From Lingula anatina (Eukaryota; Animalia; Brachiopoda), in contig CM120644.1 of assembly GCA_051362555.1 (NCBI GenBank), positions 13,042,567-13,106,566 of the forward strand: a stretch of 64,000 nucleotides of DNA, written 5' to 3'. The position numbers and the translations under genes are program-made. A model generated the notes under the pieces. It was not told the DNA's origin. It saw only the letters and a program-made list of their open reading frames with translations, and did not search any database. This document shows, piece after piece, positions 28,701-60,000 of the stretch (position 1 is its first letter; each line of letters opens with the position of its first letter).

Positions 28701-29013
28701 CCCGCAAGAAAACGCAGTAGTTACTCCAGCGCAGTAGACTACTGCAATCATACTGCAAACCGCAGCAGACTACTGCAATCATACTGCAAACATGCTTCAA
28801 ATCTGCTTCGATTTGGGAGCTAATTAGCATATTTGAAACATGCTTCTATCATGCTGCTAATCTACTGCATTAATGCTCCTCTCTGTACAAACCTATGTAC
28901 TTTTTGGAGTAGAATTGCAGTAGGCTGTGCTGCATTTCTACTGCAAATATGCTCCACACCACTACTGCGTTAATGCTTTTTTGCTACTTCGATACTTCGC
29001 ATTTTCGTGCGGG
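28701..29013. mobile_element. MITE with CCCGCA ends, 2-bp TSD and actgc subterminal repeats
   Basis: cccgcaagaaaacgc ... gcattttcgtgcggg with CA on both flanks; absent from gene B. Confidence 0.75.
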
Positions 29014-30255
29014 CAGGAACGTGGCTAAAGATTGCATGGATTCGGTAGATCTTAGCTTTGTCATAATACCAGCTCTGTTTTCGAACTATGAATACTTCAT
29101 TTAAAAGGAGTTGCGTTTAAGAAACAATTTTGTAAATTAAGTTATCTTTGGCAATTTTAATTTTCTTTAAAACACTTATACGTATTTAAAAATACGTATA
29201 AATGTTTTAAAGAATTTGATACACATTTCTATTTATGCAAAATATCATAGTGTTGTCTGCACATGTGCATTTGTACAAATTTAGTGGAGTTCTAGTATTT
29301 ACGGTACGAAGATCAGGCTCAGGAAAGCTATTCAGCGTTATATCTCTTTTTGTAACTGTTATGTAATAAGTAAACGAAATGAAAAGCTGTTGAAGTGAGC
29401 TTTTTATTGATTTAATACTTGTTGGAATATCTTGGTCGGTTAAGAAGGGAGCCACTTACTTTCCACCCTATGTCCGCAACCTTAAAAGAAGACCACGTCA
29501 AGCACTGCAAACATTGGCTATAATAAAATACTAGTGTTGATTTTTACTAATTAAATTATATATATCTTAATTTTTGTAACCTTTTTGTGCTCTGAACTAT
29601 GAAACATATTTCCTTTTTGAATTCCCTTTGGTACTTGACAAAAAGATTAACGGTTGTAAATTCAAAATGATTTATGTTTAGTGTATACGTATTATAATTT
29701 GCATGGTAAAGTTGTGCTGCTATATGAAACTTTTCAAATTGAGTCTGTACTCAGCTGCAGTTTGTACATAGATATGAGTAAAAAAAGATTTAGAAGGCTT
29801 TTTACACTAGTAAAATAATATCACACTTCTTAAACCTATTCCAGGCCACGCCAGTGAGAATATTTGATGGAGATGCCACTGTGTCGGACCATTACGGCGT
29901 AGCTTTGTTCAACCAAGAAAGAAAGGAAGACTAGATCAGCACTTCCAATATATCATACCATTTACTGACATTCCATTCCCCAACCTGCTCGATAAATCGA
30001 CTGATGAATCAATCCGTGTTGGAAAATGTTCCTGTAATCTGCCTCAATTTACGCAAGCTTTTTGGCAGGCAGTCTTAGAAATGAAGTCATAGAAAGCAAT
30101 ACAAAAGTTAAAAGCAAAGCATGGTGGATTTTTATGATTGTGCAAGAGACTAACTTCGACAGTAGTTACGAGAAGATAACAAGAAAAATATCAGTGGATG
30201 GCTTTTGCAGTTTTCATTTTATGTCCTGACCAAATTTTCTCAAGAAAACCGCTTT

Positions 30256-31945: not shown

Positions 31946-34770
31946 ATGAGGAATGCACCTTGCATTATAGCAATATTATGGGTGGTTCTTACATTTGGGA
32001 GGTAAGAAATAAAACTACTTTGAAGACATATTAGAGATGTTAAAACGTAGCGTATGAAGAAAATTTTAGCAGCCACTCACTTTCAGATATTGCATGCTCC
32101 GGTGTAAGACCAATTACTGTTCTCCATACTTTGGCCGCATTAGCTGTATTCATAACAGTGGACTAACCATTTCGCAGATCGAATATGGCCAATCCAATTG
32201 AGTGCTTGTTGCGTTATCCTCCTGCCTGGGGAAAGTATTCAGTGTCTACAAGGGGATAAGATGGCACGCTTTCTTGTTGGTTGCCATATTTGATCCGCTG
32301 ACTAGTTAGTCCTTTGTTCTGAATACGTCCATTCAGAACAGATGATCCGCTGGCTAACTGGTGCGCGGATCAAATATGGCCGACCCCACTTGAAAACGAT
32401 GCAACTAACCCCTAATAGTCTCCCCGCCTACCACACGCGTCAGGCCTGTAGGGGTCTATTGATTCAACGGATTTTATCTCGTTTTCGAGGTTTAAATTTT
32501 CGTGAAATAGCATAGGGACTGCGTTACAATAAATTGTGTAACAGGCTACTAGAGCGCCCTGTGGTCAGAGAGTAGGTCTAAAGATACCAGTTCGCTGTCC
32601 TTTGTAAAGCCATGTAGATTTCTGAAGATTCCGCATGTAATTATCTCCTCCAATTGTCCCGTTCACGTATTTACGTGTCGATATTAATTGGAAAGAATTC
32701 ATCCCTTCAGCCGATTGACACAACCGAAGATGTTACCTTGTTGATTAACCAATCGCATTCCTCTCTAAGAATCCACTACCGATCTTCAATACCATTAAAT
32801 ATGTGAAATCTTCTTTAAAGATGACCATCGTTAGGTTTTACCTCGAAAGACATACTGATTGGTATTTCTTAGGACAAACGGCATTTTCTCCAACCAACCA
32901 ACGTTTGCTCCTCCTATTTTGTCACTCACCATATCTGTAACTCTGTAACAATTTGAGGAGTTTTAAAAGTCCTTAACATTCGTTTGAGGACAGGTTTTCA
33001 AATCCTGCTATCCTTTTTAGCATTGACTCTGTCAAGATTGTTGACAGATGGCGAAGAATCAAGAGGTGATTAATCACCTTAATTTTGGCAACATTAATTC
33101 ACAACATTTAGCATTCAATAACGTACTTTGAGTCCTTAAATGAGTTCACCAAGAAGTGATAGATGAATCTTTGCGTGAAAAAAATGAAAAAGGTATTTAA
33201 AACCGCATGATTCTGTCTGTTTAGAAGCAAGTCGTTTGATTTATGTATCATCTTTTCACTTGTATTTTAGTCCACACCGCCAAGCGCATGCCAATCACGC
33301 TATTTATCCCAAAACTTACTCCGACAGTGTTGATGGCCTGATAATAAAACAATTCGCAGGTTTGAACGGCCGGGTTGGTCAAGAGGTTGGGAATGGCAGG
33401 ACTCTCAAAGATACGGAGAACTTCCAACTTATTAGAGAACTAGAAAGTGACCCAAGCTACAGCGAAATGAAGCCCAGTTTGATGTATGATCAGTCAAGTG
33501 GAAAAGGTCATCTAAGCAAAGGCAGAAAAAGTGCAGCTAACGCTATGGAGAAGAGAATACAAAAACGTCATATAAAGAAATCAAAGAAAACAAAGAAATC
33601 AAAGAAACGTGGAAGCAAGGATCGCATTGTGAACGCAATGCTGGGAACAGTGACATTCAACGTAGGTCTCCATCCTACTGTTGTGCCTGAGTAAGTGCCT
33701 TAAACAACTAGAAAAGCATTCCGAGTGCGCAGACCTCCGCCAAGGCAGCAATTTTTGATTATTATTGATTATTGATTGATTATTGATCCGGATCACCACC
33801 ACCACCATCTGCTCCTTGGCCCTTGGCCCAGTTCCTGAAAATTTCATCAAAATCGGTCCATCGCTTTTTGAGTTATGTTGATGACAGACAAACAAACAAA
33901 CAAGGGTGAAAATATAACCTCCTTGGCGGAGGTAAAAAGGGAGTTTTTGTAACCGAAGTGATCATTATTGAACGGCATTAGGTATTCTGATGCCACAAAA
34001 GAATTACACAATGAAAACATATTTTTTTAGTTTAGAAATTTCGCTCGACTTTTTTTTTATTTTCTGTGTATCCTTTACACAATATTCGATAATAATACAC
34101 TAATATTAAAAGTCAAACGGCTAATCAGTCACGAAACCCCTTTGATATCTATGTAGAAAATAACCCTCTTTGCCTTCGAATAATCGCATTGTCATTGCCT
34201 TATTTATTTATTTCAAATAAATATATTTTTTTATTATTTATCAATCTATTTATTTTCCTTTTCAATTATGGATGATGGATTTTTAGAAACCTACATAAAT
34301 CTGTAAGCATTTGGCACCGATACTCGTGTAGGAGCAGATGTTCCTTATCTTCTGCAAACTTAACCGAGAATTTCTGTATATATCTTTTTTTTTTTTTTTG
34401 GATTAAATACATTTATTGTACATTGCTTTCCAGATACGAAACGCGAAGAGCAAAGTTTATTGAAATAATAGAAAATGGTTCTCTTCCGGGAGATGTCGTC
34501 TGCTTGCAAGAGGTTTGGGAAGCAGATGATCTTAGAGAAATTATCTCCAAGACGCGGACAGATTTTCCATTTTCCGTCAGCGCCCTGCATCAGACTATAG
34601 ATGGCGACACTGTCTTCCCTACTGCTAATCCTTCAATACCTGCTTGTACCCTTGCTGAGGTGAATATGATTAATCTGTTACAGCCTTACATCATACTTAC
34701 ATACCTACAAATCATACTTACAAAGTTAAATATGAAAAATAATTTACCTTTTAACTGAAGTGCCATCTCA

Positions 34771-34808
<38 letters not shown>

Positions 34809-37800
34809 AACACACACACACAAACGAAGTCCCACGCTGTGACTTCATACTGATTCAATTTAGTTCAATGCCTGCAGATGAGCCTCTATACTGTACTAGA
34901 AGGTTTGTCGTCGACGTGATTTCCAATTCGGAGGCATTATATTTTTGTCGGCAAGACAGTAACCATTCATAGGACCTGGTGTACGAATAGCAACACCGTA
35001 TCATTTGCATGTCATTGTAGTGGGGAAATCCATAAATAATGCGAAACAATTGATATAGTGCTGTAGTAAATTGTTTACATGCCCCGGGTATTTACCGTGC
35101 TCCAAATCTACCTGTATAAGCTACGGTACTATGGCTGGCATTTCCTTTGGCTTTGATTCCGACAGGATGTGAACGTATGTGTTCCCTGACTTAGGTCGAC
35201 GTAGCCTTTAATAGAGGAACCCCTAAATAATATGTTGATGGTAATTTATCAGGTAACATAACTGTATTCAAAGTAATTTTTCTGAGTACCGTCATCCTAC
35301 GGATATCTTTTGTCATCTACATTTAGTCCCACATGAAATTGCAGGTGAATGCGGTATCCCAGTGTTTTTTTAACAACTGCCTGGCGAACAATGCGACAGA
35401 CTTGTTCCTGTGTTTCGTTGGGAACTGCGTACCAGAGTACCAGGCGCTCTCCCAAGTCTGTTTAGCTTGTCTTCTGGCACGGCAGAGCCGCAATCCCAAA
35501 GAATTGCTTGCTTCTTTCAATAGAACTGAGTTTTGTGCTACAACCCCGTACGAAGTAACCTACGGCTTGGTGATACTTAGCAAACGACCGATAGAGGACG
35601 CCTCGTTCGTGGACTACCACGAGGGATATTCAGTGAGTGTGCCACGCGGGTATCTGCGTGCCAAGGTTAGTATATCTGGACCCCGTATTCGTTTATGCGT
35701 AAAAAATTATATACAGACTTGACATTTAATATGGAATATTTTTTCCAAATCATAATTCATCAGTTTTTTTCCTATTTTGCAGACTGATAAATGAAAATAA
35801 GGATCAAAATCGTGTTTTTATAACTTATGATAAACTGTTCCATGTCATTGTGACATCAGTTCTTTAATTGACTTCGCCAATGAAGCAAACAAAACTACAT
35901 TGCCAATCTTAAGTCATACGACAACCATTGAAAGCGATATTTTGGATCTCCATATTTTCCAAATTATCGTCTTTAAAAGAGTTACACGACCCACAAAGAA
36001 CCTTCATGTCAGCGTCTAGTCACAGTAACGGTCGCCGCTATGCCTGACCTTATCCTTCTGCTACCAGAGCTTTCAAGAGGCAAGGCATTTCTTGCGATAG
36101 TTTTTTAAGAATTTAATCTGGAATAAAAGTCCAGGCAACGGTTAAAGCTTGTCCAATTTGGTTCAATTTTGTTGTAGGACATGCTGGCCGTTGATTTGGC
36201 GACTATTGACCTAACCACATATTGTCAAAGTGAATCAAATATGGCGATTTTGATGACCAAGGTAGCTGCTCATTCCCTTGGTTCTGTAAGTTATCTGCTA
36301 ATAAAAGTGCTCTGTGTGAACCAGCAATCTGATCGTGCAACCTAAAACTGTTCCTAAGGTGTCCCCTATCAAATGATAGTCAAGTGGTTCCCAGATTATT
36401 CCTTTATTTGATCTGGTTCAGGTTTTAGTCAATGACTTCCATTGGTGTTTTGGCACCAGTGTGGTATCAACTCCAAATACTGACGCTGTTAATGGCTCTA
36501 GTCACTTCAGAAGCGGCACACACCTTGTCGTAGACCTCTTGAAGATGTCTGTAAGCTCTTTTTTTGACCAATTTAGCGGTACAGGCGAAATCTGACCTCA
36601 ATAAAGAAAACAACGCGGTTTCAATGTTCTACCCAGAAACGGTCATGGTCCCCAATTCATTAGAGAAACAGACTACGCTGTTCTGCTGTTTACAGTGGCC
36701 TCCTCAGAGGTGGGCTGGTATCTTAATCTGCTTAAACCAGTTTGGTGTTCGCTAAGAGACTTGAAAAACGCGCTTTAGTGACAATTTGCCCCTCATTTAA
36801 AACGGACTGGGTGGTTTTGGTTTAATTGCAGCAGCATATCCTGAAGGAAATTGAGTCCTGTATTCTGGTGGTAAGATATCGATACATTGGACGTGGTGTC
36901 TGTGTGGGTACATGAGCCTGGGCATAAGTCTGTGAAATTGTGCGGACCGTTTCTTTTGGGGCAATAGTCTGTCTGGCAATGTCTTTCTTTTTCGCGCCAT
37001 TCTGGCACATTTTAACAATTTTGAAAAACAATACTTAACTCATTTTACGCACTGCAAAACCGACCGCTTGCATGCAAAATTTCAATTTCTTCTATGCAAT
37101 GGTTGCCGACATATGGATACTTTTTTGACAGAACCATCCCTCGCCAAAGCCAAGCTTTGACCAGCCCAAAGGAGCACTACCCAGTTAAATCAATGCATAT
37201 TTAACAATGCAGCAGTGCATCAGACTTGGTAAGCAGTTAATTGGTAGAGACACACCTTTCTTCATACTTCCCCAGTCAGATATCTTATATGAGATCTGAG
37301 TGTTTTCAATAAAGAACGCATTTTTACCTAGGTATACCTTTAAAACTGAAATATTCCATATTAAATGTCAAGTCTGTATGTATGAAAAAATTCAGGTCTA
37401 TATGTAAAAAAAGCACGCTCGACTGTGACTTTGTTTTATCAACCCAATAAATGGACCTACAAAACCACAAAAATGACACTATACTAGTCCACCAGAACAC
37501 AATAATGCCCGATCTCTTAACCGATCGAATAGTGTAACGATGTTTTTGTCATTACATATTTAATTATTCAAAATTTAAATAATACACACAGTAGGTGTCA
37601 GTGTGAGCTAAAGGTTCTCGTCAAATTTGAAATAGATATCCAAACGTTTTATTTGCACACCGTATAGTGTTGTCAAGTTACCAATCAATAAGCATTAAAT
37701 TTTTCAGTTTCAGTACTATCGATCACCGCTACCGCTCACGAACCATAATCATACCAAATTTTGTGACAATTTTCTAAAAGAGAACTTTACTTAATTCATG

Positions 37801-39684
37801 TAGGTCAATGGTCACAATTAAATACACTTTTATTTTTAACTAAACATTTGTTCTGCAGGTCAGTGATATCCATGTGTTCTGTACTCACACCACCCCTGTT
37901 TTGACTGATGTTTACATAGATGGTGAGTATAGGATCATCATAGGTTAAAGGGATAACAACTGTTCATTTTGGCTAAAAAATGAATTTTCTTGGGGTAAAC
38001 AACAATTTTCCCATTCTTACCAATGGTTAATGAATCCAGTTCTACATTCAAATTTAGTCCATGGTTATTTTCTAGAAAGTTTGCTTTTTGTAATAATCTC
38101 GTAAGCTATAGCCATCTATGGAGGTCACATGATCGGATGACAATCACAAATTTTAGAATAATTGCTTTTTTGCCATTCTTGGTGGTGAAATAAAATATAT
38201 TATATTTCCTTGAGTTGTCTACAATGTTTTTATAGTGAAATAAAGATTCCATACGAAGAGTTGTTATCCCTTTAAGTCGTGCATTTAGGAAAGGGAGCTG
38301 GACGAGGTTGGGGGGTGCATGGCAACTGCCCCCCCCCCCTCCTCTCCGCTGCCACCTTTGCTCAACGTGTTGTTATAAGAAGACCATTCTTGCACAGACT
38401 TCATCATAAAAAAGGAAACTCTTGATGTGGCTAGGAACTGTATACCCACTAAAAATAGACTATTTAATATTACTATCCCCATTTATACTTTTTGGAATGT
38501 CAATTTGAAAGAAAAAGTAAATGCAGGGATCGTGTAACAGCTAAAGAGACAATTGAATTCTTTAGTCTTTTCACACAAGTCAGCGACAGCACATGACGTG
38601 CGCTAAGTAAGTGGGTCAAAATCTAGGACGGGGTAAGGTCTAGAAATCAGTGGAAACTGGACCTGTATCGAATTACCTTGTTTGTATGCTCAGTATGCCT
38701 TGTTTACTAGTACATCTGAACAGACTATGTTTCCTTCACTTCCTAAGTATTTAACTCTCTTTTCATATTGTACTTGGCATCCTCCATCTGGGGTTTAAAT
38801 ATTCATAAGTTGTACTAGTTAGTCAATGAATGAGCAATAATACATTATTTTAAATCCATTTTCCAGGCCGTTTCAGCAGTTACGCTGAGCAGAGTTTATA
38901 CGAACTCGGAACGCTCCTGAACGCCGCAAATCCTGACCTCGAGAGATCTCTTCTTCTTGGAGACTTTAATACTTCTCCGAGTATCCCGGATGCAAACATT
39001 ACGTCACAGCTACCCCTGTCCTATGATCTCTTGGTCCAGAATTACTTTTCCCCTTATTTGGAAACCGTTACGTTATGCACGTTCTGCTATGACAACTGGC
39101 TGACGTATAATTTGTCTAATGTTATTATAGATCACGTGCTTGTACCCAAATCCTGGAGGGACCTAATAATGGCGAAGGTAAATAGAGAGGTTAGCATCTT
39201 ACACGTGTGATTTAAAAGGAGACAGCAGCAAGCACTGCGAACATTGGTCAGAATTAAACACCAGTTATATATCTTTATTTTTGTATGATTTTATTTATTT
39301 ATTTATTTATTTATTTATTTCGCACCCGACTTTGAACAATTCTTCCATTTTGGTTTCTATTTGGTACTTGATACAATAATTTGCAATTGTTAATGAGGAT
39401 TGATTTATGTTCGGGCATGAACAAAATTGTGAGTTTGTGCAAAGTTAAAATTCGATCTGAAACCTGAAAAAAATGGCTCGTCACATATTTAATGCTCATT
39501 TGCAGTCCCCTGAAGCAGAGACACCAAAGTAGATACGAATCGTAAGAAAGTACTTTGTATTGCTAAAATAATCACACTACTTAACCCATTCCAGGCCACG
39601 CCACTGAGAATATTTGATGGAGATGACACTGTGTCGGACCATTACGGCGTAGCTTTGTTCAGCCAAGAAAATCAAGAGGAATAA
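31946..39684 (+). CDS. Secreted Cys-rich EEP-superfamily hydrolase, gene B (~495 aa)
   Basis: Exons 31946-32001, 33271-33690, 34434-34659, 35345-35665, 37859-37922, 38867-39177, 39595-39684; no stops. Signal peptide MRNAPCIIAILWVVLTFG, Lys-rich tract, and motifs TFNV, CLQEVW, THT, GDFN, IDHV, SDHYGV. Confidence 0.92.
33703..33937 (-). mobile_element. Short HINE/Helitron-like element
   Basis: Minus strand starts ttttacctccgccaaggagg, has a (GTTT/GTCT)n microsatellite, an inverted ccttggcggaggt copy, and ends ...ttttctagttgtt. Confidence 0.7.
35714..37376 (-). mobile_element. 1.66-kb Tc1/mariner element with degenerate transposase
   Basis: Perfect ~28-bp TIR cagacttgacatttaatatggaatattt; TA TSD; minus-strand remnants KKDIARQ...KETVRTI and LPWSSKSPYLIHFDNMW; absent from gene A. 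Confidence 0.9.
37949..38271. mobile_element. Kolobok-like MITE (AG...CT ends, TTAA TSD)
   Basis: ttaa-agggataacaact ... agttgttatccct-ttaa; absent from gene A; related fragment at ~57415-57500. Confidence 0.8.
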
Positions 39685-40836
39685 ATGAGAGCTCTCTCGA
39701 CATATCATTACATTTACTGGACATTGCATCGCCAGCCTGCTCGGTAAAACGACTGATGAATCAAGCCAGGGAGTGTGCAATCCTTCTTTATATATGCAGT
39801 CTGAATAGGCACACGGCCGATGGCAGCTTTCCCCAAATACGCCAGGACATGCCGCTTTTGCTTAATAAAGAAAACCCTTATGTAACATTACCAGTTTTTA
39901 TGCTGAATTGTTCAGCAAGGGTGTAGCTACATACATTTACGCAAGTTCTTTGATCGGGGAGAAACTTTGAACAGACTTTGACATGCCAGATCTAAACTTG
40001 TAAAACAAAATTCATAGAGTCATGTCTATAGCAGAGGGATCAAGGGGCATCTATTAAAATTTGGTATTTCAAAAGCACAGCTAACTCTACTTATTACTGT
40101 TTTCAAAATTGTCCTCAGGCAGTGATTTACGTCAATTGTTTTCCTCCATGGCAGTACTTCTATACCAGACGGTGACAGAAAATGTCAATACATCGCAAAT
40201 TAATTACCACCTGGCAAAACAATACGAACAGGGTTGACAAATAAGCACCTCACACGCTGCAGAAATACGTCCCCCGCTGAACTTTAAAAACATGTTTTCT
40301 AGATTGCATTGCATTTTTCAAGGTCATTTGACACACGCATGTATTCACTCAGTAAAAGTAAATATTTGACCATTGTTTTTGTCGCGCGGGAATTGGTTTC
40401 TGATGACCCTCTCTCCCAATATCTACATTTTGTCTATTTAACATTGATCTCAATTTCCTTTTTTTAAATCTTTTTTTAACGCGTTATACAGAGCGAACAC
40501 AGTAGCTAAATGGGTCAACGTTTTGGCCATCGCATGGGAACCACTATTAATGTCAGCCACGGGTAATTTGTGCTTCACCCAAGCGGCTGTACATCATATG
40601 TACCCATTTCAACCTAGCACGACCTCAGATACTACTTTGGTTGAAAAAACTTGAAATGCCCTGTCCACATTCACCACCGTTGTAGCCCCAAAACTCTGAG
40701 ACTAATTTTTAAGTAGTGGACTCTTTGCTATCACCCGTGGAGATAAAAGCGCTTCTTTCATGAGAACGGTTGTGAATGCGGACTGTACTTGGGTCATGCA
40801 GTGCACTTTTTAAGGCATTTATTATGCTGTGCTCAT

Positions 40837-40926: not shown

Positions 40927-41613
40927 GTAAGTGACTGATATTTACCGTTTCGATATGTATATATTGCTTTATTTCAAGGTTGGAACCAATATCTTAACAA
41001 GAAATTCCGTAACAAAAGGTGTTTCATCCTTATGCGTATTTGTCTCGTGTAATTGAATATGCGATTGTGGATAAATAGATATAAAGAGAAAAATATTAGA
41101 AATGTTAATAGCGATAACAGAATCTGAGCAAGGTGATTACTTATTTTGAAGGTTTTCCCGTTTTCATATTTTGATCTGTCCTCAAGAGTAACATGGAACC
41201 GATCTTAAAAATGTTCATCATTATATGCACATGTATGAGTTTTAGACAAAATAATTTATTTTAATTATGAAGATGGAACTGCAGTTAAAATGCTTCTGAT
41301 ATCATCACAATATAATTAGTACATTCCTAAATATTTGTGATCTCGTCTGCCTTTTACATATTAATCTACAGTACCAAATGTGAACATTTTGACTATGAAA
41401 ATCAAACAATGCATCCTTTACAAGGCGCCATCATTATGGATTAAATAGATGGTGTGAGCTTCGGTGAGCTTAAAACTCCAACTGGCTGAATCAATAAAAA
41501 TATCCACCTTCATTTTACATTGTTCAATATGCGTAATGAGGTATTTTGAAACGATTACCTTTTTTCATTCTTTGCAGTGTATATTCGAACAGAAGCAATA
41601 AGTGGGGCGCAAT

Positions 41614-42368
41614 ATGAAGACCTTTTTGATACTATTGGTGGTCTTTGTGACCATTACACTCGTTAATGTGGAAAGTACAAGTGTCGAGACCAACAGGTGT
41701 GTATTTGTGACATTTATTTGTAATTAAGGATGGTTTTAACATTGTTAAGTGCTCCCGAAAGAACGGATGTCTCAACATGTCTATTAGAATATTTTCCAAA
41801 ACCGTAAGACTTTTAAAATCTTTGTGAAGACGAATGCATAGTTTTGCTGACAAAATACATTTATGTGTAACAGTACATGCAAGTAACAGTGTTAGAAAGT
41901 GGCATTCATCTTTTTTTTTCTTTTGATAATGTGACCCAATGACATTGTCCGTTCTGATACCATAAAAACAATGGAAATATGAGATAATGTGAATATATAA
42001 AACCTATAACAAAACGGTCGGCATGTCTGTGAATGGTGAATTTGTACTGATGTGAAGTAGTCTGTAATTCGACAGAACTTCATAAGTACATGTTACAACC
42101 AGAACAAATGAACGTGGATGCATTCTTTATTCGTTACCACATTTGCCAGTCTGCCATTATTGCTTGTCCACTCTCCTCATTAATCCCACGAAATCTCGTT
42201 GACTGTGTGTTATCTTGGGTGATTTAAAGTATCATTTTTGTCACATTTAGGTTGGCAGTGAAGCCCTTGAATTCAAATTCTAACTTTGAGATATTCCTGA
42301 GAAGCCGTCGCAGACGAGCATGCCCTTGCAACGGACAGTGTGGGACCTGTTACTGCTGCCTCTCGTGA
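41614..42368 (+). CDS. Small secreted Cys-rich prepropeptide 1 (66 aa; predicted mature ACPCNGQCGTCYCCLS)
   Basis: Exons 41614-41696 and 42251-42368 (phase 2): MKTFLILLVVFVTITLVNVESTSVETNRLAVKPLNSNSNFEIFLRSRRRR-ACPCNGQCGTCYCCLS*. AATAAA at ~42535 and ~42555. Confidence 0.85.
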
Positions 42369-43275
42369 CAGGTGAAGACGAGGGAACGAAACATCTAACC
42401 TGTGCCGTCACATGTGCACGTCAAGTGAATGTTATTGTAGGCAATCGATCTTCTGAGGTGCAAAAACTTTCTATGTTGAACTTAAACTATCAAAATATTA
42501 ATTTTCAATATTCTCAGAATATTTTTGTGCGAAAAAATAAACCATATTGAATTGAATAAAACAACCAAATTAAATGTCTGTTTCTTTTTTATTCTGTTTG
42601 AACATGTCACATGACATGGGCAAGTTTCAAGAAGCTGTCGTTAGTTATAACAAGTAACGACAGAACTACCTGGCTAGCGAGAAGACTTAATATATTTATA
42701 AATTTAAAATTATATGAGTTTTATTGGCCCATAACAGGACCGGGTTGAGTTGAGAAACCTTTGTTAACATTTTTTCTAACCTAAGTCGTTCGTTCACTGG
42801 ACTTTAATAAGGTTGACAAAGAGTCAGCTAACACGCTGCAGACATAACGACTCCAGCTGAATCCTGACAAACGTTTGTATTACTGATTTACATATAAGGT
42901 CATTCAAAACACGCATACATGCACTTTTAGTATTAAGTTAATTTTTCTTTAATTGGTTCTTTGATTGCAATAAGAAACACTTCAAATTTCAAGAATTAGG
43001 TTTTGCGTTTATCATAATAAGGCGATTCTGAATGCGGTCTGCTCTAAGCTCAGGCAATGTCTTTTTTAAAGGCACTTATTATGTTGAGTTCATAACCAGT
43101 CAGACCCGAGACTTTTTAGAGATTTCACTGCACATTGGCCGTGCAGGGCAAAATAAATGGATAGTTTCGCTGACAAAAATATGTTTAATAGTACATGTAA
43201 GTGACAGTGCATCAAAGTGACATTTAACTATTTTCGTCCATTATGATAGCCTAATGAAAAAACGTTATACAAGTA

Positions 43276-44238
43276 GGCCCTGTTTCATCAAGGCTGGATA
43301 GGCTATCCTATGGATAACACTATCCAAGGTATAAATTTCTTATCCTCTGTATAGTTATCCTCTGTATAAATTCGTGTTTCACAAAGGCTGGATAAACAGC
43401 ATGATAGTAATCCAGTGGATAAAAGATTATCCAATACCATATTTAGAAAAAGACATTCCCATAATGCAGTTGGTTGCTATATACATTATAAAAGCCATGA
43501 TAGTTGCTAACAAAAAAAGTGATTTATAGCATATTTGGAAAATAAATTACCCATGATTAACAATATTCTAAGTATATTTCAAGATGGTACATTCATTAAA
43601 ATAATGGGACTAATATATACAGCATATTTTAGTGTCAGTGTCAAAAACACATCACATTGCATTAGTTGTGCCTCATGCTATGTTTACAATTTGAAGGGCG
43701 AGGGTTGAAGGGCAAGGTCGTGACATACTTTCTAACAAAATGGCTGACTTGGCAAGTTTGGCAGATTATGTCAATAGCAGTGTAGAGTTTTTTCGTCGAT
43801 TTAAAAGGTATGTTTTAGTAAAATAAAAGATAATTGGTCTCTCATGGAGATTGCATGGGTTCTGTTCGTAGCAGGCGCGCTGTCAACTTTGATCAAGTCT
43901 GTTATGTAATCTATTGTTTCAGCATCACTCAAAGAATTAAAAGCAAACACACACATCTTTTAAAATTCTCTTTCTAATTATTCTCCGCCTGTGAAATCTC
44001 ACAGGATTTACTGCCAAACCAAGCAGGTTAGTCATTTTTGATGATTTAACAGCATGATAGCAGATTTATCCCGCCTATTTCGAGCGGACAACCTTACCCT
44101 CTGGATAAGCTGATTTATCCCCGGGATAACGCTATCCACTGTTGATGAAACGCACTATCCTCTGGATAGCTCTATCCAGAGGAGAGCGGCCATTTTTATC
44201 CATAGGATAGCGCTATCCAGCCTTGATGAAACCGGGCC
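43276..44238. mobile_element. 963-bp PIF/Harbinger-type non-autonomous element
   Basis: TIR ggccctgtttcatcaaggctggatag / ctatccagccttgatgaaaccgggcc; 3-bp TSD GTA; many ctatcc/ggatag subterminal repeats. Confidence 0.9.
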
Positions 44239-44240
44239 GT

Positions 44241-44865
44241 AACCTATAACAAATCTGTAGGCAAGTCTTAGAATGGTGAATTCGTACCGTTGTGCAATAT
44301 ACTGTAGTCCGTAATTCGACAGAACTAAAGATGTAACAACCAGAAAAATGAACGTGGATAAATTCTGTATACTTTTATTCGTTACCACATTCGTTTGTCT
44401 ACCATTATTTCTGGCCCCACTCTTCTCCAAAATCCCACGAATTTCTTGTTTGACTTTCCGCTAGGTCGCAAGACTTCGGATTATCTCGGGTGATTTAATG
44501 TTTTTTGGATCACAATAAGGTTGGCAGCAAAGCCGTTGGCAGTCGAGCATGCCCTTGCATCAGCCTATGTGGATCCTGTTTGTGCTGCATTTCGTGACAG
44601 GTCAAGACGAGGGAAGGAAACACTTAAATTGTGCTGTCACATGTGCAAGTCAAGTGAATTGTTATTTTATGCTATGAATCTGCTGAGGTGAAAACAGTTT
44701 CTATATTGCAAACTATCAACATATTAATTTTCAATATTAAAAGAATAGTTTTGTGCACAAAAATTAAACCTCGTGAATCGTATAAAACAATCAAATTTAT
44801 TGTCTGTTTCTTTTCTGTTTGAACATGTCACAGGCCAGAGGTTTCAGGAAGCATTCGTTAGTTAG
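44241..44865 (+). pseudogene. Duplicate of 42001-42650 carrying a frameshifted last exon of the Cys-peptide gene (ACPCISLCGSCLCCIS*)
   Basis: Colinear with the intron, last exon and 3' UTR of gene 1. A 40-nt deletion removes the pro-region and furin site; no separate signal-peptide exon found. Confidence 0.8.
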
Positions 44866-46310: not shown

Positions 46311-48551
46311 TAGTATGTTTTGCACCTAAGCATGGTACACCCTTTTAGACTGGATGTGTTTAGCAGTAGGACGTGTTTGATGGCTAAATATATGTAGGGT
46401 ATATATGTATGGCCTTTAAGTTAGGATTTCCAAGGTTTATATATATATATATATATATAAGAACACACACACACACACACACATAGCAAAGTCACAGTCA
46501 CCTCAACCTGTCTATCTATAACAGGGTACCAAGAATTGTCAACTTTGTTAACTTCACTCCATCACTTTTACAGCGACTTATTCATCCTAGTGTTAGCTGA
46601 CCTTGCAAGGAAGTTTATTGGAATGTATTTCTGAATAACATGTTAAGAAAATTCACTAGTTCACTAAAGAAAATTCACTAAAAAATTCAGTAGTTCACTA
46701 AAGCAACTTAGTGGGATGGCGTAGGGTCAGAAAATGGCAAAATAGTAACAAGAAGGATAAAATCACGGTCCATAAATATTCAAAATGGCTGCCAATTTAT
46801 GGAAACACACCAGTTTTACGTTCATTTGTATGATATAATGTATGGCAACTGGCAGCCATGTTAGTTTTTCTCATAATAGTACTGAAGGATACATATACTT
46901 TCTACACACTATAAATCTAAAGCATAAGGGTAATAAGGATATGGCACATGACAGCGGCCGTCGTGGATTTTCTTAAAATTCCCAAGATTGCACGTAGTAC
47001 TGTTACTCCCCACATACATATATTATTTAATTAGTCCTAGGATTTTTAATAAGTTCTAGGATACATGGTTGCTATCTGCTAGATATGTATTATATTGGTC
47101 GAAAGGGTATGGAAAACACAGAGTAAAATTTTATTCACTTTATTTGATAAAAAAATAATAAAGATATTTGTCCATAGAATTCCATAAAGTGGCAGCTATT
47201 TTGGATTCTTTGACAAAACGATGATTTTTTTCAGAGGACAACGCCCCTAATCTGATTAAGATGTCAAAAGGTACCCACATCCAAAATCGGTGCTTTTATC
47301 CGGCGTGTCTCGATTTTTTGCATTACGTTAACAATGAATCAACACCTTTTAGAGGAATGGATAAATATCTTTCGGAGAAGAAATGCAAGGACGAAACACT
47401 ACTACCAGTATATTATTGATTTCAGAATGTCAACCTAAAATTAACCATTTATTCTGTGTGTTTCCTTTTAGATTGCTTCAGTGCAAAATGTAGCGTTAAT
47501 TAAGTATCCCTTCAATGATAGGAAAGGAAGTACAAATTGGAAATGGTGCCTGGTAAAATACAAATGATATTTGTTAAATAAAACAGGTCCAGGATTCGAT
47601 TATTACTTCAGTACTTTGTAACCTCGCCAGCGGAAATATATTTATGTGGTCATTTTGATAACGAAACGAGCACTTGATTGGCTTAATTACATGAAAATGG
47701 GTAAATTTATATTACATTAATCACGAATAAACACTTAATCTAAGATATGGACAAATATTGATCTCTTGAACAGGAAATGAAACAACAAAACACTACTTCC
47801 AATATATAATTGATTGCAGTATGTCAATCTATAATGATATTTTTTCTATATGTTTCCGTTTAGAGTATTTGTTTTAATGCAAAATACAACGTTTATCAAG
47901 CGTCCTTCCAATTATAGGAAACGAAGTACAAATAATGCTAGTAAAATGCAACTTTCATTTGAAAATTACGGTACTACATTGAATACATCTGTGAGGGTAC
48001 TATCCGTGTCCACGGAGATCACATACATTGTACACCGTAATGTACACAAGTTGCCCTGATGACACGAAATGGCAGTACTGAAATTTTATGTTTCTGTGCA
48101 TTTACAACACGTTTGGTCTAATAGTGATTTCCCAATTTCTCGTTTCTCTATCTGTTTGTTAAATTTCAATGAAATTGCCCAAACCGCTGCTTTATATTAT
48201 TGTCTCTGTAACAGTCAGATTTTGATAAAGTAGCAGATGTGTGGCATATGTTGACTGATGTATTGATGAAGTACGCAATGTCATTTTCAAATTATTTGCT
48301 ATACATGAATAACAACATTCTTGCAACAATCCGCAGTCTTTTACCAAGTTGATATTTGATCTCAAGTTGATATGGGACAACAATGCAGAGACTATATGTT
48401 ACCGCATTCAACTTTATTCAAAGAGCACGCAATACACATAAAATTTCGAGAAAGATTCTAAAATTCGAGCTCATTCATCTCTTGTTTGAACAAAAGCTAT
48501 AGCGGTTTCCATCTTGTATGCAATGGTGCAAGCACGAAGAAGCATGTCTTT

Positions 48552-48884
48552 CTACGCTAAGCAGCACTTGCACCACGAATGACAAGTAAGGCAACACGAT
48601 CGACGGAATCGCTGCAGGAATTCTGAGATGCTAGTTATCTTCTGGTTTCCTGCCGACCTTCATGTAAAGAAAAACTAAATACTATGGAGGAAAATAGGTA
48701 AAACTAATACAAAAAATTCAAAGACAATCCTTACTTTTTTATTATTATTTCTGAGCTTGATTCATTTGAGAGATGAAAATGTTTGTCTGATGTACCTTTC
48801 AACATCGGATTCGATCATTCCACTTTCAGGGGTCACGGCGGCAATGGCAACGAAGACAAGCAAAAGTAATAAATACGCCTTCAT
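48552..48884 (-). CDS. Small secreted Cys-rich prepropeptide 2 (64 aa; predicted mature SCCLTCHSWCKCCLA)
   Basis: Exons 48884-48796 and 48657-48552 (phase 2): MKAYLLLLLVFVAIAAVTPESGMIESDVERSAGNQKITSISEFLQRFRR-SCCLTCHSWCKCCLA*. Acceptor at 48921 upstream of the ATG; minus-strand AATAAA at ~48413-48418. Confidence 0.85.
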
Positions 48885-50137
48885 TCTATGTTTCAGCTCT
48901 TGTTCACGTCAAAATATCCACTAAAAGATAAGGGAGACTTTGTGTCAGAAATTAAGATTCGAAAACCATTGTGTTAAAGATGCATACAAAGTCAATTTTT
49001 TGTCACAAAAACCAACCAAATGCCAGCATATAGTTTCAAGTAGTATAACTAAGAGAATAACCAAAAGGCATTGTTTAATTTTACCCCAAAATGATGTTTG
49101 AACAGATTTTTCTGCTGGCATTCTAAGCTGTTTGTCAATGGGAAAGGAAAGTAGGTCACGGGAGTAGGTTAAATTTACAACCATAAATTTAAAGAAAGGA
49201 GCAGTCTAAAGGTCTTTTATGGCTGATCGAGTGATCTATTCAGTTTATCCCTTGGCATGTCAAATTTATTTGAGTCATATAAGAATCTAGTAGAAGTGGT
49301 TTACATGTGTTACTGGGAATCCACGCTCCACCGATGCTCGGTTCGTATGTACCTTTAACATAGCAAAAGATACCAACGGATTTTAAATATATGTGTCTTT
49401 AAATGTGTTCGTCTTTCGATCACGGCAACTGGTTATTTTTAAATTCTGGATAAAAAACCAAGCATTAAGAGACAAAAATAGCATTTAAAGATGTCTTTGA
49501 AGTCACTCTTTGCTATAAAAGACTATAGTAGTGTAACTTAGAAAAATTCCAAAAGACCTCGTTTCATTTGTCACCCGAAAAATGACATTTAGGATAATTG
49601 CTGCTTGCTTTCTGTGCTGTATATAACCGGGACAGATGCGTAGGTCAATCTACGACCAGAAATTTGAAGAAAGTGGAGTTTTAAATCTTTTTATGGCTAA
49701 TCGAGTGACGCATTCGGGTTATCCATTGGCATGTCAACTTTATTTGAGTCGTATAAGAAACTGTGCTCCAATATGTTACTGGAGAACCCATCTCGTTTTT
49801 ATGTAACTTTTAGAGAATCCAGAGTTAAATTTAAGGGCCCTGTCCTTGTTTATTTCAGTCCGAAATATTACCAGTGACCCCAAATCAATAAAGTATCTCA
49901 TCTTGTTCACTTAACCAGGTTTGTTTTTATAACATTCCAACTCTGCAAAAATTGTATTTGATTGCACTTCCATTATTGTTGTCATATATCCTTTATACTT
50001 TACTTTTACCCTGGATATCAAAAGTACTTGATATTAATCAGCCTCTGTGAATAAATTAATTGAGAGAGAAAGAGAGAAGGAGATAGATAGATAATACAAA
50101 CGGTATACAACAAGTCAAGGGAAACCTTCCAATGCAG

Positions 50138-50446
50138 GGCCCAGTTTAGCACTAACCAGTGTTTAACTCTAACCAGTGGATAAATTCCCCTAAACCCCGT
50201 TAACTAAATGACGGATGAAATTGTGTTTCATAAACAGTGTTTAAACAGTCTGTTAGTTAACTGACCTTTAAATAATTATTTTATCCAGTTAAACACTGGC
50301 CAGTTAACTAATTGGCTGTTTTTAGTCAGAACACTGTATATGAAACACATTTTAACCATCTTTTAGTTAATGGGTGTTAGGAGAATTTATCCACTGGTTA
50401 GGCTTATCCACTGGTTAGTGCTAAACGTCCTTTATAAAACTGGGCC
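50138..50446. mobile_element. Harbinger-type foldback MITE
   Basis: ggcccagttt...tagcactaaccagtg mirrored by cactggttagtgcta...aaactgggcc; 3-bp TSD CAG. Confidence 0.85.
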
Positions 50447-51562
50447 CAGAAGAATATAAAAAACGGGACTTAGAAAAATAATTTTTAAAAAGTCCTTTGT
50501 TTTAGTAAGTATTATATATATTTGTTTTTATTTAATCCCTCACACGAGTCACATGAGGTAAGCATTTAGTTTAACGAAACGGCAATTTACCAACATCCGA
50601 ACGCGAATTGCTGCCATGTCAATAATGATAAGAAAAACAAAAAGAATAAAAAGTTTTACGTTGGAGTATTTTGCGTACGTTGGGAAAATTTACCAATCTG
50701 GTTAAAATAGATTTTCCCAAACATAAACCTCCAACTAGGACCGATTTTACATACCAGTTGATTTCCTTTTTCCTAATTGATCACTTTGCAGGCTCGACTG
50801 TATTAGTTCACTGTCTCTATCAGGCGTGGCAGTTGGGACTGTAGCACATCTGTGTCCAGTTTGCAACTGAAGTCCAGCGATAGGGTGAAATTTTTTTATT
50901 GATTAGACTGGGTAATTTATGGCTAAGGCTGAATAATATATGGCCCAAAAATCCAATCCAATTAGGCATGTTAATATGTTAGCTCTGCGGAACTGTAGAA
51001 ACTGCCGCAGGACATCAAATACTGCAATGAGGCCGCTTAAAACATTTTTTAAAGTCGCTATGCAGTGCAATGCAGAGCATCGTCTTTGTGTTGTATTCCA
51101 TTACAAAGGTTATCTGGGACAGTAAATATGTCTCTAACTTCGGTTAGCTTGAATGCTGTATGAAACTCGTTGGTGGAAGCAACTGGCCGGGGACGGGTAA
51201 AATAGGTATACTGATTTAAAACGCTGAAATATATAAACTCAGCATATAAACACTCTGGACAATAGAAGTGTCACCCAATGAATCAGAGTAATCAGATTTA
51301 TTATCCTGAAAAGGCGGAATATAAGCAATGTCAGAATATCGATATAGTTGAATTGTTCAGTCAGAACCGTTTCTTTTGTGAAATTTTATGTTAATAAAAT
51401 GATACCAGGAGCATATCATTCCACAGTCATTTATCTCCCCCAAAGTATTGGTTCAGTAGGGGTGACACTTCTATTGTCCAGTGTGTATATTAAATATCAT
51501 GTGTGCGAGGACTTTAACTATGAATGATGTAGCATTTCACATTAACACGTGTCTCAGCACGA

Positions 51563-52672: not shown

Positions 52673-53136
52673 GACAGGATTTTTGTTGATAGAAAATTCT
52701 ATTTTTCTTATATAATTTACGTATCAACATTTTGCAAACTGAGACCAGTTTTCGTTTGAAGTTGAGTCTGAGGCTTGCGTAACGTAGAACTTAGCAAGAA
52801 ACAAATGGGTAAATGAGTATCGGGCTCCGCAACCTAGGTACATTATTTTTTTAATATAATTAGCTGGTTATCATCCTTTGCAGCTGACTCATGGAGCGGC
52901 TGCTGTTCCGCTTCATCTGCCGCATTGTGCAAATGATGAGATCAAGATTGATGTTGTGCCCTTGCCACACTGTGGAGTGAGAGTTATCGTTCAAGACAAG
53001 CGGAACCGGCCGCAGTCGAACCAGGTCTGTCTGTCTGTATGTCTGTCTGCCTGTCCCTTGTCACGTCTTTCTGGTTTTTACGTACAGGTAAATGTACATG
53101 TAACAGGCCGTGTGTACATGGAAGTCCATTTAGCCG

Positions 53137-53173
<37 letters not shown>

Positions 53174-55660
53174 GTGTGTGTGTGCGTGCGTGTGTGTGTG
53201 TGTTTGCATGTATTCCCATGAATGTAACCGCATGTACATGTATGTGTGTGCCAAGGCCGAAACGTAGATAAATAAATCGTCCAAAGTCGAAATTACTTTT
53301 CTGAAGTCTGCAAAACAAATTATCAACAACAGCTTAAGTCGATACACTACACTACATTAAACTACACTACACCACACTATAATGTATGAAATGGCTCATT
53401 TCAGCCTAGAGACGGCGATATCGTTTCGTTGTGGTCAGTGATGTCCAATGCAGGAGATGGGTTCCTACAAGTGACCAACGTGAAAGTGGACCCTTTTCTT
53501 GACAAAGACGAATACGTGGTCAACACAGCTGGAGAGCTTGACACGGACGCAAGTAAGAATCCAAAGCATGTAGTTAGTATTTCATCATATTTTAAGTTCG
53601 AGCAACAGTGTTTTATTTGAAAACATTCCAACTAGATAAACACACAAACATGGAGCAAAGATCACTGCCAAAGATACACACAGATAAATTGTGGTAGCTG
53701 AGATCGAGCGGATCCATTGCACAGCGACCAAATAACACATTTCATTATATTTTGATGAAGGCCACTGGCCCCTTTGTCGCAATACTAAAAAATCCTTGTA
53801 AGATTCCAGGATCTACTTTTAAGTCGGTCCATTTCTGACCTGTCCTGAAATTTTCACGAAAGATCCATACGTAACTTTTTTTTGCATTATGTTGGTGACG
53901 AACAGCCAGACATACGGAGACATAAACATAAGAGGTTATAATATAAATGAATTTATTGTTTTTAATTGCATACAAGAGGGTGTGCGTTACGCACGTCGAA
54001 TGCACGATCGTCCACATAGCTGGTTCCTCACTGAAAAGAAAGCATTAAAATTGAATCTACTAGGGCATCATAATTCTCAAATACGAGTATGTGCTTTGAC
54101 CTTCAAATAATGTTGACTTTCCTTAATGAAGATCGTTTGGAACGACGTCTAGTTTATTTTCGACAATCATCAGTAGAAAAGCCACCCAAGACGTAATACT
54201 TATCGTTATTATTAAAATTATTATTGTAATTATTTTTTCGTATTTGATATTTAGCAAAATTCATGTGGCAGACAAGGTTTTCACCTGGCAATGCTCACCC
54301 TTGGATCAATATTACCGACCTTGACCCAGTTATCCTGAAAATCCGTGGAACCCAGTTTAAACAAGATGGCGACAATTCTTGGTACATTATTACTGTAGAC
54401 GGAGATGACGTCGTTGCGAAACCAGAGGTGAGAACCTTTCTGCAATGAAGATGACTTGGCTCTTTAGTTTGCCTTTAAATTCAATAATACAGGCACCGTA
54501 CTATATGGTATCTGCATATATGTACAAAAAACAGAGGATCTCAATCAACTCACGCAAATTTGCAATGGAAAACACTCTTTACTTTAAGAACTTTAAAACG
54601 CGTACTAGTGCCATATTTCTATCAGTCATTGCTATTTACATGATCTTACTCCTGAACTGCATTTTCATACATGTATTGTATTGCATACATGTGCATTTCT
54701 CCATTCCATTCAAATCAAGAATGTTTTCCCTGGAGAGGATGCAACACAGACCAATCAGTTCCAAATATTCAACCCGTCCAGGTGGCCGGTATATAGCATG
54801 CCAGAGGTTGGGCGGAATATCAGGTAAGCTTGATTGACGCCGTGTGCGACTCCAAAGCACCAGCATATCTACCGTATAATACATATGCTTTCATACATCA
54901 ATAAAGGATATATCTATGAAATTGAATACACGTACATGTATCTTTTGATGAGGGGAAAATGATAGAAATAATGTTCATATGAAATTAAAATTTAGATTAT
55001 ATCTGCATTTAAAAGGTAGGCCAAGGGTAAGTAATGAATAATCACAGTACATAAACAAACCTAAACCACCCATCCAAGAAAAAAAAATCATCTAACGTAC
55101 TAGTACCAGTACGTTAATGGGCCTATTAATCAGATATAATACACTGCGTAAAATCTATTTTATCATTTCCCATTTCCCGATATCATTTCCCATCATTTTT
55201 TTTTTTTTTTTTTTGAAACATTGAAATACAAGAAGTTAAAGTCGACATACATGAACCTAATTGGCCATGGGCCAATTAGGTCACCATCGAAGATTCAATT
55301 TGTGAAACAGCTGCAGGCTACAGAGTATAGTTTTACATAGCTTTTTTGTAGCTGTATAGCTATACTAGCTTAGCTGTACATGTACATTGTACATGTAGCT
55401 GTAGGCCTACTTAACCATTGTAATTATGCTCATTTTAGTTTTGCATATTCAGCCTGAGTTTCAGTATTCCCCAATAACATGCACAATGTCTACATTCTAG
55501 ATTCAACATTAATAATGCTGGAAGTAACATGTTCCTTGGCTCAAGTGCAAAAGGCAAAGCTCGGAAAGTCTCGCAGGAAGGAGATCCAGAGGGCGCTAAC
55601 TACTACTGGCCGAACCCCGCCATTTTGTTTTTTGTCTACGATAGAGGGCAGCCTATATAG
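51821..55660 (+). CDS. Putative leaderless beta-trefoil (IL-1/FGF-like) protein, paralog 2 (~277 aa; alternative start at 52515)
   Basis: Exons 51821-51870, 52502-52559, 52884-53024, 53405-53552, 54255-54427, 54720-54823, 55501-55660 (TAG); phases 2/0/0/1/0/2; no stops; acidic N-terminus without a signal peptide; exon-for-exon paralog of 5838-8341. Confidence 0.85.
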
Positions 55661-57087: not shown

Positions 57088-60000
57088 ATGCTTTTTAAAT
57101 CCAACATCCGTTCAGCCTATTTTGGCGCAGCCTTCTGTTTAGCGATGATGACTTGGGGTGTCAAAGGTGTGAAAGGGTACCCCACGGGCGCCCCACAGGA
57201 CGCGTGTGGAGCTATGTTGCCTTACCATGGACCTCAAGGTGACGACCAATTATATCCCAGCCAGACAGGCCCAGCTCCTTACACCATACAAGTCGCATCC
57301 CATCATGGGACCTACTTGCCGGGCAAGGCGATGAACGGTACGTTTATTGCAGTCTGTTTTACTTACTAAGGATTGAGAAGGCTTTCTGCATCCTCAGTCT
57401 TAATACTCCGACCTTACTGGTGGTAAAATAGAAATTATTATATTTCCTTGTGTAGTTTACAATGTATTTAATGTGAAATATGGATCTCATACGAAGAGTT
57501 GTACGAAGGGGATGGAGTCGGTGAAATAACTGTGTTTAAAGTATTTTCTTTAGTGGTCATTTCTCAGCCAACCATGACAGTATATTGGCTAATGACAGAT
57601 TTCGTTTTGATAGTTTATGGCGTTTCTACATTTGATGGCCTTATATCAACATCTTTTGTCATTTTAAAAAATTTATGCGACCTACATCTGTAACTACATG
57701 TAGCTACTTGCTAGGAAATAGGGATATTACAATGCTCCATTTTATTTTTATTAGATATGTCTCTATAAGAAAAGATCAGCAAACCGTGATACCGTCTCAA
57801 ACAGAAACTTACACCCTGCTAAAACGTTTGTACCTTTGCACCGGTAATATGAATTGTGTTATGTCCAATTCATGTATGTAACTTGCGCTTCTTTCAGTGA
57901 CTCTCATTGGCAATGTTGCTTTCAAAGGCTTTTTGTTGCAAGCGAGAGTAACGAAAGGCAACACCCAAGTGGGCACGTGGTCTATTCCCAGTGCTATATC
58001 TGCGCATGCGCGTCACGTGGCATGCGGCTGCCATGACGGAGCCGTGACGCACAGGAACAATACAGATAAGAGAGCCCTTACGTTTATGTGGAATGCGCCC
58101 CCTGTCGGTACCGGGGACGTGAAATTTGTGTAAGTGTTTCAGGCACCCGCGCCCTTCAAACGACAACAGACAGATTTGCTAAATACTTGAGGGACAATCT
58201 GCATTTGTAATCGAACTGGTTTTTATACGTACATGTAGGCTACTATCGGTAATACGTTTGTTCGTAGTTCATACGTTCACGTCAATTAAATCAATTCGAT
58301 TTTTATGTACAGACACAGATGTGTCTGTACATATAGCCATCACCTGCGTCTGTCGTCGCCGTCGCCGTCGTCGCCGTGCACTTTTACCGATAACACGATA
58401 AGTGGAAAACCGTTTTTTCTTTTGGTTTGAAACTTACAGAATTGATGAATATTCATAATACGCAGGTCAAGTTCGAAAATCAGCATGATCGGGCCATTTT
58501 TAGGGTAGTTATGCTGTTTTTTCACTTTTTTCAGCATATATGCAGCACCGATAACACGATAAGTGGAAAACCATTTTACCTTTTGGCTTGAAACTTACAA
58601 AACTGATAAATATTCATAATACGCAGGTCAAGTTCGAAAATCAGCATGATCGGGTCATTTTTAGGGAATTTATGCTGTTTTTTCACTTTTTTCAGTATAT
58701 ATGCCATATTACTTTTTGGCTTGAAACTTATGAAACTGATGAATATTCATAATACGCAGGTCAAGTTCGAAAATCAGCATGATGGGGCCATTTGTGGGGA
58801 AGTTATGCTGTTTTTTCACTTTTTTCAGCATTTATGCAGCAACGATAACATGATAAGTGGAAAACCATTTTACCTTTTGGCTTGAAACTTACAGAACTGA
58901 TGAATATTAAAAATACGCAGGTCAAGTTCGAAAATTGGCTTGATTGGACTATTTTTACAAATTTAAAGTTATGCTGTTTTTTCCCATTATTCAGCATATA
59001 TGCAACATTGATAACACATTTTAAGGAAAACCAATCAGCCTTTTGTCTTGAAACTCACAGGAGTGATCAGTCTTACTAGTATACAGATCAAGTTTGAAAA
59101 TAAGCTTGATCAGTTAAGTTTTGATGAAGTTATTAGCCCTTTTGTATACAAGTGGTTTTTCTTCAGATTTAATTCTTAGGCATGTTGACAGTCTCATTAT
59201 GGAACTAATTAGATATGAAAAAGTGTTGTTTTGACATTTTCTGCTTCTTAACAATAATGAAGTAATACAGGTTTTTTGTGAAAATTTTTATCTTTCATAG
59301 TTGCAATTTTCAATGTGGGACTTAGAGCTCCCTTGGGCATGGAAGCCTAGTGGTAATCAAATTTTTTTCTTAATGTCCATGTTTTTAATAGTAGATATTT
59401 TAAAATTGGTGGTATTTAATTAGTTAATCATTATGTAATGTTGCATCAAAATTGACAAAAAACCTACTTTGTGCTCTGCCACCATTTTCAAAGTATGACT
59501 CTGACTCTAAAAGAGTAAAGTTTTACTTTCTATTTTTTTAACTATTCTTACAAGAATGATTCTTAGGATTGACATACAGCTCATATTAGAAAACCAGCTC
59601 TATTGGATTATCATTTTTATTAAATTTATGCATTTTTTGTGAAATTTTCATTTTTCTCATTCTGGCACTTTCTAATTGAAAACTTGAACTCTGATGGGCC
59701 TGGAGCCTTATGCTTTTACTTTCATCAGTATTACCTGTTGTGCATAATTAAAATTTGATGTTGACTGTGCAGTTAAACATAATGTATTATTGCATCAGAA
59801 TTGGCAGTCTCCTGTTTTTGTGCATTATTGTTTTCTGTTTTTCTTAAGGTGTGACTTATGGGCCTGAAGACCTTTGATAGACAAATTTGTGTGGTCGGTC
59901 TGTAAATTCCCCTTGGGTATTCACTAGGCTAATTTCAGTGATATAAACTCATTTGCCTAATTAAGTGGCCATAAAATGAAATTTCATTAAGCACACTTGT

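Follow-up and report, generated by a model that had tools for sequence, protein, structure and literature searches.

We analyzed a 64,000-nt stretch of Lingula anatina DNA (the window) and found on its minus strand a three-exon gene, gene C, that ends in the coding part of a six-cysteine peptide. Gene C is almost certainly a genuine secreted-type peptide gene. Its precursor of 64 codons consists of a hydrophobic N-terminus of ~21 residues, a propeptide, an RxRR site and the predicted mature peptide (peptide C), which has a conotoxin-like cysteine pattern. Judged by its gene sequence, peptide C is not an M-superfamily conotoxin since neither its signal peptide nor its intron layout passes the tests that define that group. 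The best reading of the sequence data is that the Lingula six-cysteine peptides form a new, lineage-specific, secreted and disulfide-rich family with predicted bonds, and this family is apparently undescribed and unannotated. The features of gene C are listed below.

50755..50830, minus strand, exon 1, 5' non-coding, with its 3' edge fixed and its 5' edge approximate, from reads of RNA run X14 and a GT donor at 50754
48921..50754, minus strand, intron 1, 1834 nt, GT..AG, from splice sites and X14 reads
48796..48920, minus strand, exon 2, with ATG at 48884, the predicted signal peptide and the start of the propeptide, X14 depth 16-44
48884-48822, minus strand, predicted signal peptide, approximately codons 1-21, a hydrophobic N-terminus with a putative cleavage site placed by eye
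48658..48795, minus strand, intron 2, 138 nt, GT..AG, phase 2, within an Arg codon, from the X14 joint
48600..48657, minus strand, exon 3, remaining propeptide with a terminal RxRR site of convertase type (48611-48600) at which cleavage is predicted
48555..48599, minus strand, predicted mature peptide C, 15 aa, from translation, X14 depth 8-11
48413..48554, minus strand, stop codon (48554-48552), 3' UTR and AATAAA (48418-48413), from the sequence

Splicing of gene C was detected in the reads of X14. The 138-nt intron was skipped in four reads with four different starts, and 37-39 reads stopped at 48921 with their loose letters matching near 50757-50790. On the 3' side of the gene the reads extended to 48460, with few at 48200-48355. 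The first mate was on the plus strand for all of the X14 depth, which fits minus-strand RNA for gene C. The gene accounted for 60 of the 9.5 million reads in X14, and among the four RNA runs mapped at 93% likeness this run was the only one that covered the last exon. Five of the nine listed RNA runs were mapped, and X16, with 0 reads, was given no weight. In each of the four RNA runs, numerous divergent reads from both strands piled up on a repeat at ~48974-49300 within intron 1. The pile had an abrupt edge at 48972-48974, and we read the repeat as transcribed and dispersed. Intron 1 also contained an inverted-repeat pair (50144-50426) that resembles a short mobile element, as does a further pair at 51246-51490. 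Direct local duplications that are ~80% alike (47367-47933 and 49196-49762) flank the coding part of gene C, with spacings of ~395 nt and 474 nt.

The initial annotation had assigned the pattern CC-x2-C-x3-C-x1-CC to a peptide encoded at 48599-48555. Minus-strand translation confirmed both the peptide sequence and the pattern, which starts directly after RxRR and has loops of 0/2/3/1/0. The peptide ends in Leu-Ala and a stop, has no amidation Gly, and is predicted to have a monoisotopic mass of 1653.6 Da if three disulfides form. We shuffled the 64-kb window 200 times in 4-nt blocks and scored the occurrence of this pattern. A short CC-C-C-CC of any kind was present in 4 of the 200 shuffles, and one with a one-residue last loop was present in a single shuffle. 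None of the 200 contained the latter with RxxR before it and a stop after it, indicating that the pattern of peptide C, basic site and stop included, was not due to chance. A six-frame scan of the window identified three such Cys-rich ends, namely those of gene C, of gene A (42318-42365) and of copy B (44547-44594). A single-sequence fold model of the last exon of gene C had a pTM of 0.24, one helix at residues 10-25 and no bonds, and no Foldseek match was found for this low-scoring model. The CxxCH string in peptide C is a haem-c-like motif; this reading was rejected, as the His is a Tyr in a second expressed form of the gene.

X14 RNA contained two forms of gene C, and the form that departs from the window was the majority (10 of 12 reads at 48581 and 36 of 44 at 48913). 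The second form had 16 coding differences in 14 codons, of which nine changed the residue and five were silent. Since the read counts were similar across the differing sites, the differences are probably phased into one second form. The changes in the mature part were Leu53Phe, His56Tyr and Lys60Arg, all conservative, and no Cys was changed, which may reflect a constraint on the cysteines and was counted toward the best explanation. There was no excess of amino-acid change between the two forms (nine changed over ~149 sites and five silent over ~43 sites), and this ratio argues for purifying rather than positive selection. DNA runs X1 and X6 matched the window form, although X1 may be the source of the window. 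Given this match, and since contigs drop variants, the second form could be an allele or a paralog.

A sister gene with a different cysteine pattern, C-x-C-x3-C-x2-C-x-CC, had also been claimed, and we recovered it as gene A on the plus strand together with a decayed duplicate. This copy (44547-44597) was an addition to the initial annotation, as were the second expressed form of gene C and its 5' non-coding exon. The features of gene A and copy B are listed below.

ends 40926, plus strand, likely non-coding upstream exon of gene A, placed from splice sites only
41578..41696, plus strand, signal exon of gene A, ATG at 41614, from signal likeness to gene C (tblastn E 2e-8)
41697..42250, plus strand, predicted phase-2 intron of gene A, 554 nt, GT..AG, in an Arg codon as in gene C
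42251..42368, plus strand, last coding exon of gene A, with propeptide, polybasic site and 16-aa peptide, from an open 66-codon frame
43023..44864, plus strand, copy B, decayed duplicate of gene A, with six Cys codons and the stop retained at 44547-44597

Translation of 42318-42365 gave the claimed pattern, with loops of 1/3/2/1/0 and thus a framework different from that of peptide C; the expected mass of this 16-aa peptide is ~1618.5 Da. No reads of gene A, the intact paralog on which the framework change depends, were seen in any of the four RNA runs mapped at 93% likeness. The signal peptides of A and C were identical at 12 of 21 residues, a value that none of 2000 shuffles reached (z 10.1), and the DNA of their last exons was also alike (z 3.0; 4 of 500 shuffles as high). 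The propeptides were no more alike than expected from composition (z 0.3; 716 of 2000 shuffles as high), the same was true of the mature peptides (635 of 2000 shuffles as high), and the 3' UTRs were not alike. Based on the shared signal and on a phase-2 intron that interrupts the corresponding Arg codon, we regard A and C as paralogs. A weak tblastn row at 11630-11710 was rejected as a further paralog; it lacks a start codon and runs into a stop.

Measured from the stop, the cysteines are at 14, 13, 10, 6, 4 and 3 in C and at 15, 13, 9, 6, 4 and 3 in A. Cys2, 4, 5 and 6 are in ungapped register, while Cys1 and Cys3 are each off by one, and both the Cys2-to-Cys4 span and the distance between Cys2 and the stop are equal. 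The M1 connectivity is I-V, II-IV, III-VI (PMC4278219), and a Cys2-Cys4 bond is also present in M2. As the span is the same in A and C and the bond is common to the M1, M2 and St-CRP connectivities, Cys2-Cys4 would be the likeliest shared bond. The A/C pair offers a sequence-level view of how small the step between two frameworks is.

Copy B sits between genes A and C, and its peptide has loops of 1/3/2/1/0, as in A. Its flanks were ~84% like those of A (~16% different). The signal exon was missing (best score 30.5, below the shuffle mean of 34.6) and the propeptide part was interrupted by a 40-nt gap, and for these two reasons we consider copy B a pseudogene. Between A and B, none of the 18 Cys-codon bases differed compared to 11 of the 30 other mature bases (Fisher p 0.003), in a post hoc test over 16 codons with a pseudogene on one side. 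This pattern suggests that the loops changed on a constant scaffold before B lost its function. An inverted-repeat pair inside copy B (43276-44238) resembles a short mobile element.

The genes were searched against several collections. Pfam, run on 18 pieces of the window, returned no family on the last exon of A or C, and on the signal exon, with E up to 1, it returned no conotoxin family and one weak unrelated row. A PDB search by sequence gave no match under E 0.04, the weak rows being unrelated. A word-based and length-limited search of a protein collection, for which both queries included a number of intron-coded residues, gave no candidate for the last exons of A and C and none scoring for the signal exons. 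The ESM Atlas had no usable match for gene A or gene C. Three exact peptide motifs were without a match in literature text, and no Lingula title dealt with this family in a search of titles; a 2018 survey of Lingula immune genes could already list the genes. The Lingula peptides fall among the small lineage-specific cysteine-rich secreted peptides.

With regard to function, the explanation that we place first, while holding it somewhat more open to doubt than to belief, is that the spliced and expressed precursor of 64 residues yields a predicted 15-residue, three-disulfide host-defense effector with a convergent conotoxin-like pattern. The signal peptide would send the precursor into the secretory path, a furin-type convertase would cut after RxRR and release the C-terminal peptide, and the six cysteines would pair into three bonds to give a ~1.65-kDa peptide. 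The target of peptide C could then be a specific one in microbes or parasites, or the peptide could have a weak effect on Gram-positive bacteria. The net charge is +1 for C and 0 for both A and B, and such a near-neutral charge would favor a specific target or a weak Gram-positive action rather than cationic membrane lysis. Most antimicrobial peptides are unlike C, A and B in charge, and this counts against a defense role. The patchy expression, in one of the four RNA runs at 93% likeness, is in agreement with defense. Turnover of the Lingula peptide family would proceed through local duplication, decay and changes in the loops.

In gene behavior and architecture, the closest match to the Lingula family is MgCRP-I of Mytilus, for which PMC4558851 describes lineage-restricted prepropeptides with a constant signal, six cysteines and variable loops. 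MgCRP-I genes also resemble the Lingula genes in having pseudogenes, a non-coding exon at the 5' end and a phase-2 intron that precedes the last exon, and in their low patchy expression, conotoxin-like pattern and filter-feeding host (PMC4558851). By analogy, the constant signal, unalignable propeptide and variable loops of the Lingula genes correspond to the MgCRP-I layout and would support defense. On the other hand, MgCRP-I has the pattern C(x3-6)C(x1-7)CC(x3-4)C(x3-5)C (C-C-CC-C-C) with longer loops, is usually cationic, and has an extra phase-1 intron (four exons) and at least 67 loci (PMC4558851), and no sequence match was found between MgCRP-I and the Lingula genes. Moreover, MgCRP-I had no antimicrobial, antifungal, insecticidal or cytotoxic activity (PMC4558851), and the inactivity of this nearest architectural analogue would argue against defense.

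The nearest spacing match that we found for peptide C was with St-CRP-1 and St-CRP-2 of the ascidian Synoicum turgens. According to PMC13208793, these peptides are CC-C-C-CC with loops of 2/3/5 and 2/3/6, neutral and amidated, have MICs of 25-49 uM on one or two Gram-positive strains, and form the bonds I-VI, II-IV and III-V; St-CRP-1 showed no mammalian or brine-shrimp toxicity. Peptide C has the same N-terminal spacing, CC-x2-C-x3-C, and the same terminal CC, and in St-CRP-2, which starts with Ser, the first four cysteines occupy positions 2, 3, 6 and 10, the same as in peptide C. Compared by eye, the second Lingula form is also like St-CRP-1 in having Tyr after Cys3, an aromatic residue before Cys4 and Arg after Cys4. 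All of these peptides have fewer than 20 residues, are near neutral and come from a non-venomous filter-feeding host. The third loop of peptide C has one residue as opposed to 5-6 in the St-CRPs, and peptide C lacks their C-terminal amide. The likeness in spacing, together with the weak antibacterial action of the St-CRPs, would by analogy support a defense role for peptide C. A broader conjecture, which we think improbable, is that a single ancient mini-scaffold of secreted bilaterian defense peptides (CC-x2-C-x3-C...CC) gave rise to both the Lingula peptides and the St-CRPs, with the Lingula form as the most compact and with A and C as a natural framework III/XXV switch that retains the Cys2-Cys4 bond in a venomless animal. 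The St-CRPs belong to another phylum and are known at the peptide level.

A possible but doubtful alternative is that peptide C is a signaling peptide (a hormone, a neuropeptide, or a spawning or gamete cue) that is freed by convertase cleavage to bind a receptor of the host. Short disulfide-bonded hormones exist, and a single C-terminal peptide after a basic site, a near-neutral charge, two expressed forms that differ conservatively and restricted expression among the RNA runs would all be in agreement with this alternative. However, a family that duplicates, shifts its framework and decays within 8 kb would be unlike most conserved neuropeptides, and peptide C is without an amidation signal. 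One supplement file on spiralian neuropeptides (Thiel, PMC8557429) names Lingula anatina 394 times, and four exact motifs, searched as exact strings only, had 0 matches in it, which favors defense over signaling. Identity with the neuropeptides CLCCY and CCWamide was rejected, since these have other Cys layouts (PMC8557429).

We consider it unlikely that peptide C is a deterrent or anti-parasite toxin directed at ion channels or receptors of other animals, as a functional parallel to the mini-M conotoxins. The M1 branch is defined by framework III, CC-C-C-CC, with one residue in the third loop (PMC4278219). The assignment of peptide C to the M-1 pattern by the initial annotation agreed with this definition, as its loops are 2/3/1. 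Like the M1 conotoxins mr3e and tx3a (PMC4278219), peptide C derives from a prepropeptide, and the 15-16 residues of peptides C and A are also the size of M1 conotoxins. The toxin reading also gains from the Cys order of gene A, which is that of framework XXV, as in as25a (PMC4278219), and from the constant signal and variable loops. M1 conotoxins are products of the cone-snail venom gland, whereas the host of peptide C is a brachiopod. Lingula is a suspension feeder and is not known to have a venom organ, which weighs against a toxin. In addition, the framework predicts neither connectivity nor fold: disulfide connectivity is independent of the Cys framework (PMC4278219), and the teretoxin Tv1 has the framework III pattern with a different connectivity and fold (PMC3979744). 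Framework III therefore says little of the fold. Tv1 is a CC-C-C-CC peptide from outside Conus without sequence homology to M conotoxins, indicating that framework III recurs independently. Unlike peptide C, Tv1 belongs to a venom; it is also longer (21 residues) and has loops of other sizes and a connectivity of its own (PMC3979744). The M1 peptide mr3e had no obvious effect in mice (PMC4278219), St-CRP-1, which shares framework III, showed no toxicity (PMC13208793), and the read depth of gene C was moderate.

That peptide C is instead a reduced metal-binding (metallothionein-like) peptide or a component of the shell or mucus matrix seems quite unlikely to us. Cysteines make up 40% of the peptide in CxC, CC and CxxC groups, and a His adjoins Cys3 in the window form, as might be expected of such a peptide. 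Nevertheless, most of the RNA reads (10 of 12) have Tyr in place of this His, the number of cysteines was even in four of four forms, there was no Pfam match, and the signal peptide and convertase site would point to an oxidising secretory path.

Descent from the M conotoxins was the weakest explanation. Conotoxin superfamilies are defined by the signal peptide with an identity threshold of 69.3%, and M genes have two coding introns of more than 3 kb, in phase 1 and then phase 2. The comparison of signal peptides, by eye and at five ungapped offsets with one M precursor, gave at most 4 of 21 residues identical. Gene C has a single 138-nt phase-2 coding intron in place of two long ones; this propeptide intron matches the second intron of M genes, but the phase-1 intron after the signal is absent. 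Loop 1 of peptide C has two residues compared to 3-4 in four mini-M loop variants, and sister gene A is without framework III, unlike the M1 branch. Brachiopods and molluscs are both lophotrochozoans. Even so, with the defining signal test failed, a true M-superfamily homologue retained from a lophotrochozoan ancestor is highly improbable despite its framework III, one-residue last loop and phase-2 intron. The initial annotation had left open convergence or kinship; the first is favored, and the second was not borne out, as the signal peptide and intron layout do not match and Pfam gave no family on either last exon. The likeness of peptide C to conotoxins is thus very probably convergence. 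Further literature was also drawn on (PMC3862624, PMC9783627, PMC3914837, PMC12621736, PMC7551347 and PMC8398477).

The Lingula genes add a peptide family from a phylum with barely described secreted effectors, together with a very compact three-disulfide scaffold open to direct synthesis and assay. Alongside the St-CRPs they are a second occurrence of framework III outside venoms, and they caution against calling conotoxins from the Cys pattern alone.

Other genes were noted in the window. An inverted pair of paralogous multi-exon genes is present at the ends of the cluster (5841-8274, minus strand, and 52942-55654, plus strand); these are 72-87% alike in five blocks and had no Pfam match on the scanned pieces. 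Tandem genes of the EEP (endonuclease/exonuclease/phosphatase) family with a Cys-rich insert are located at 18645-30015 and 31946-39767. The second of them begins with a signal-like stretch and corresponds to Lingula anatina protein record P0003, its long exons at 33.3-39.7 kb being 89-100% identical. This record was the one protein matched by an EEP exon of the window, which places the window in a brachiopod. A Reeler-domain gene with a signal-like start is located at 57088-58133 (Pfam E 1.9e-14); Reeler-domain proteins are linked to defense in some invertebrates.
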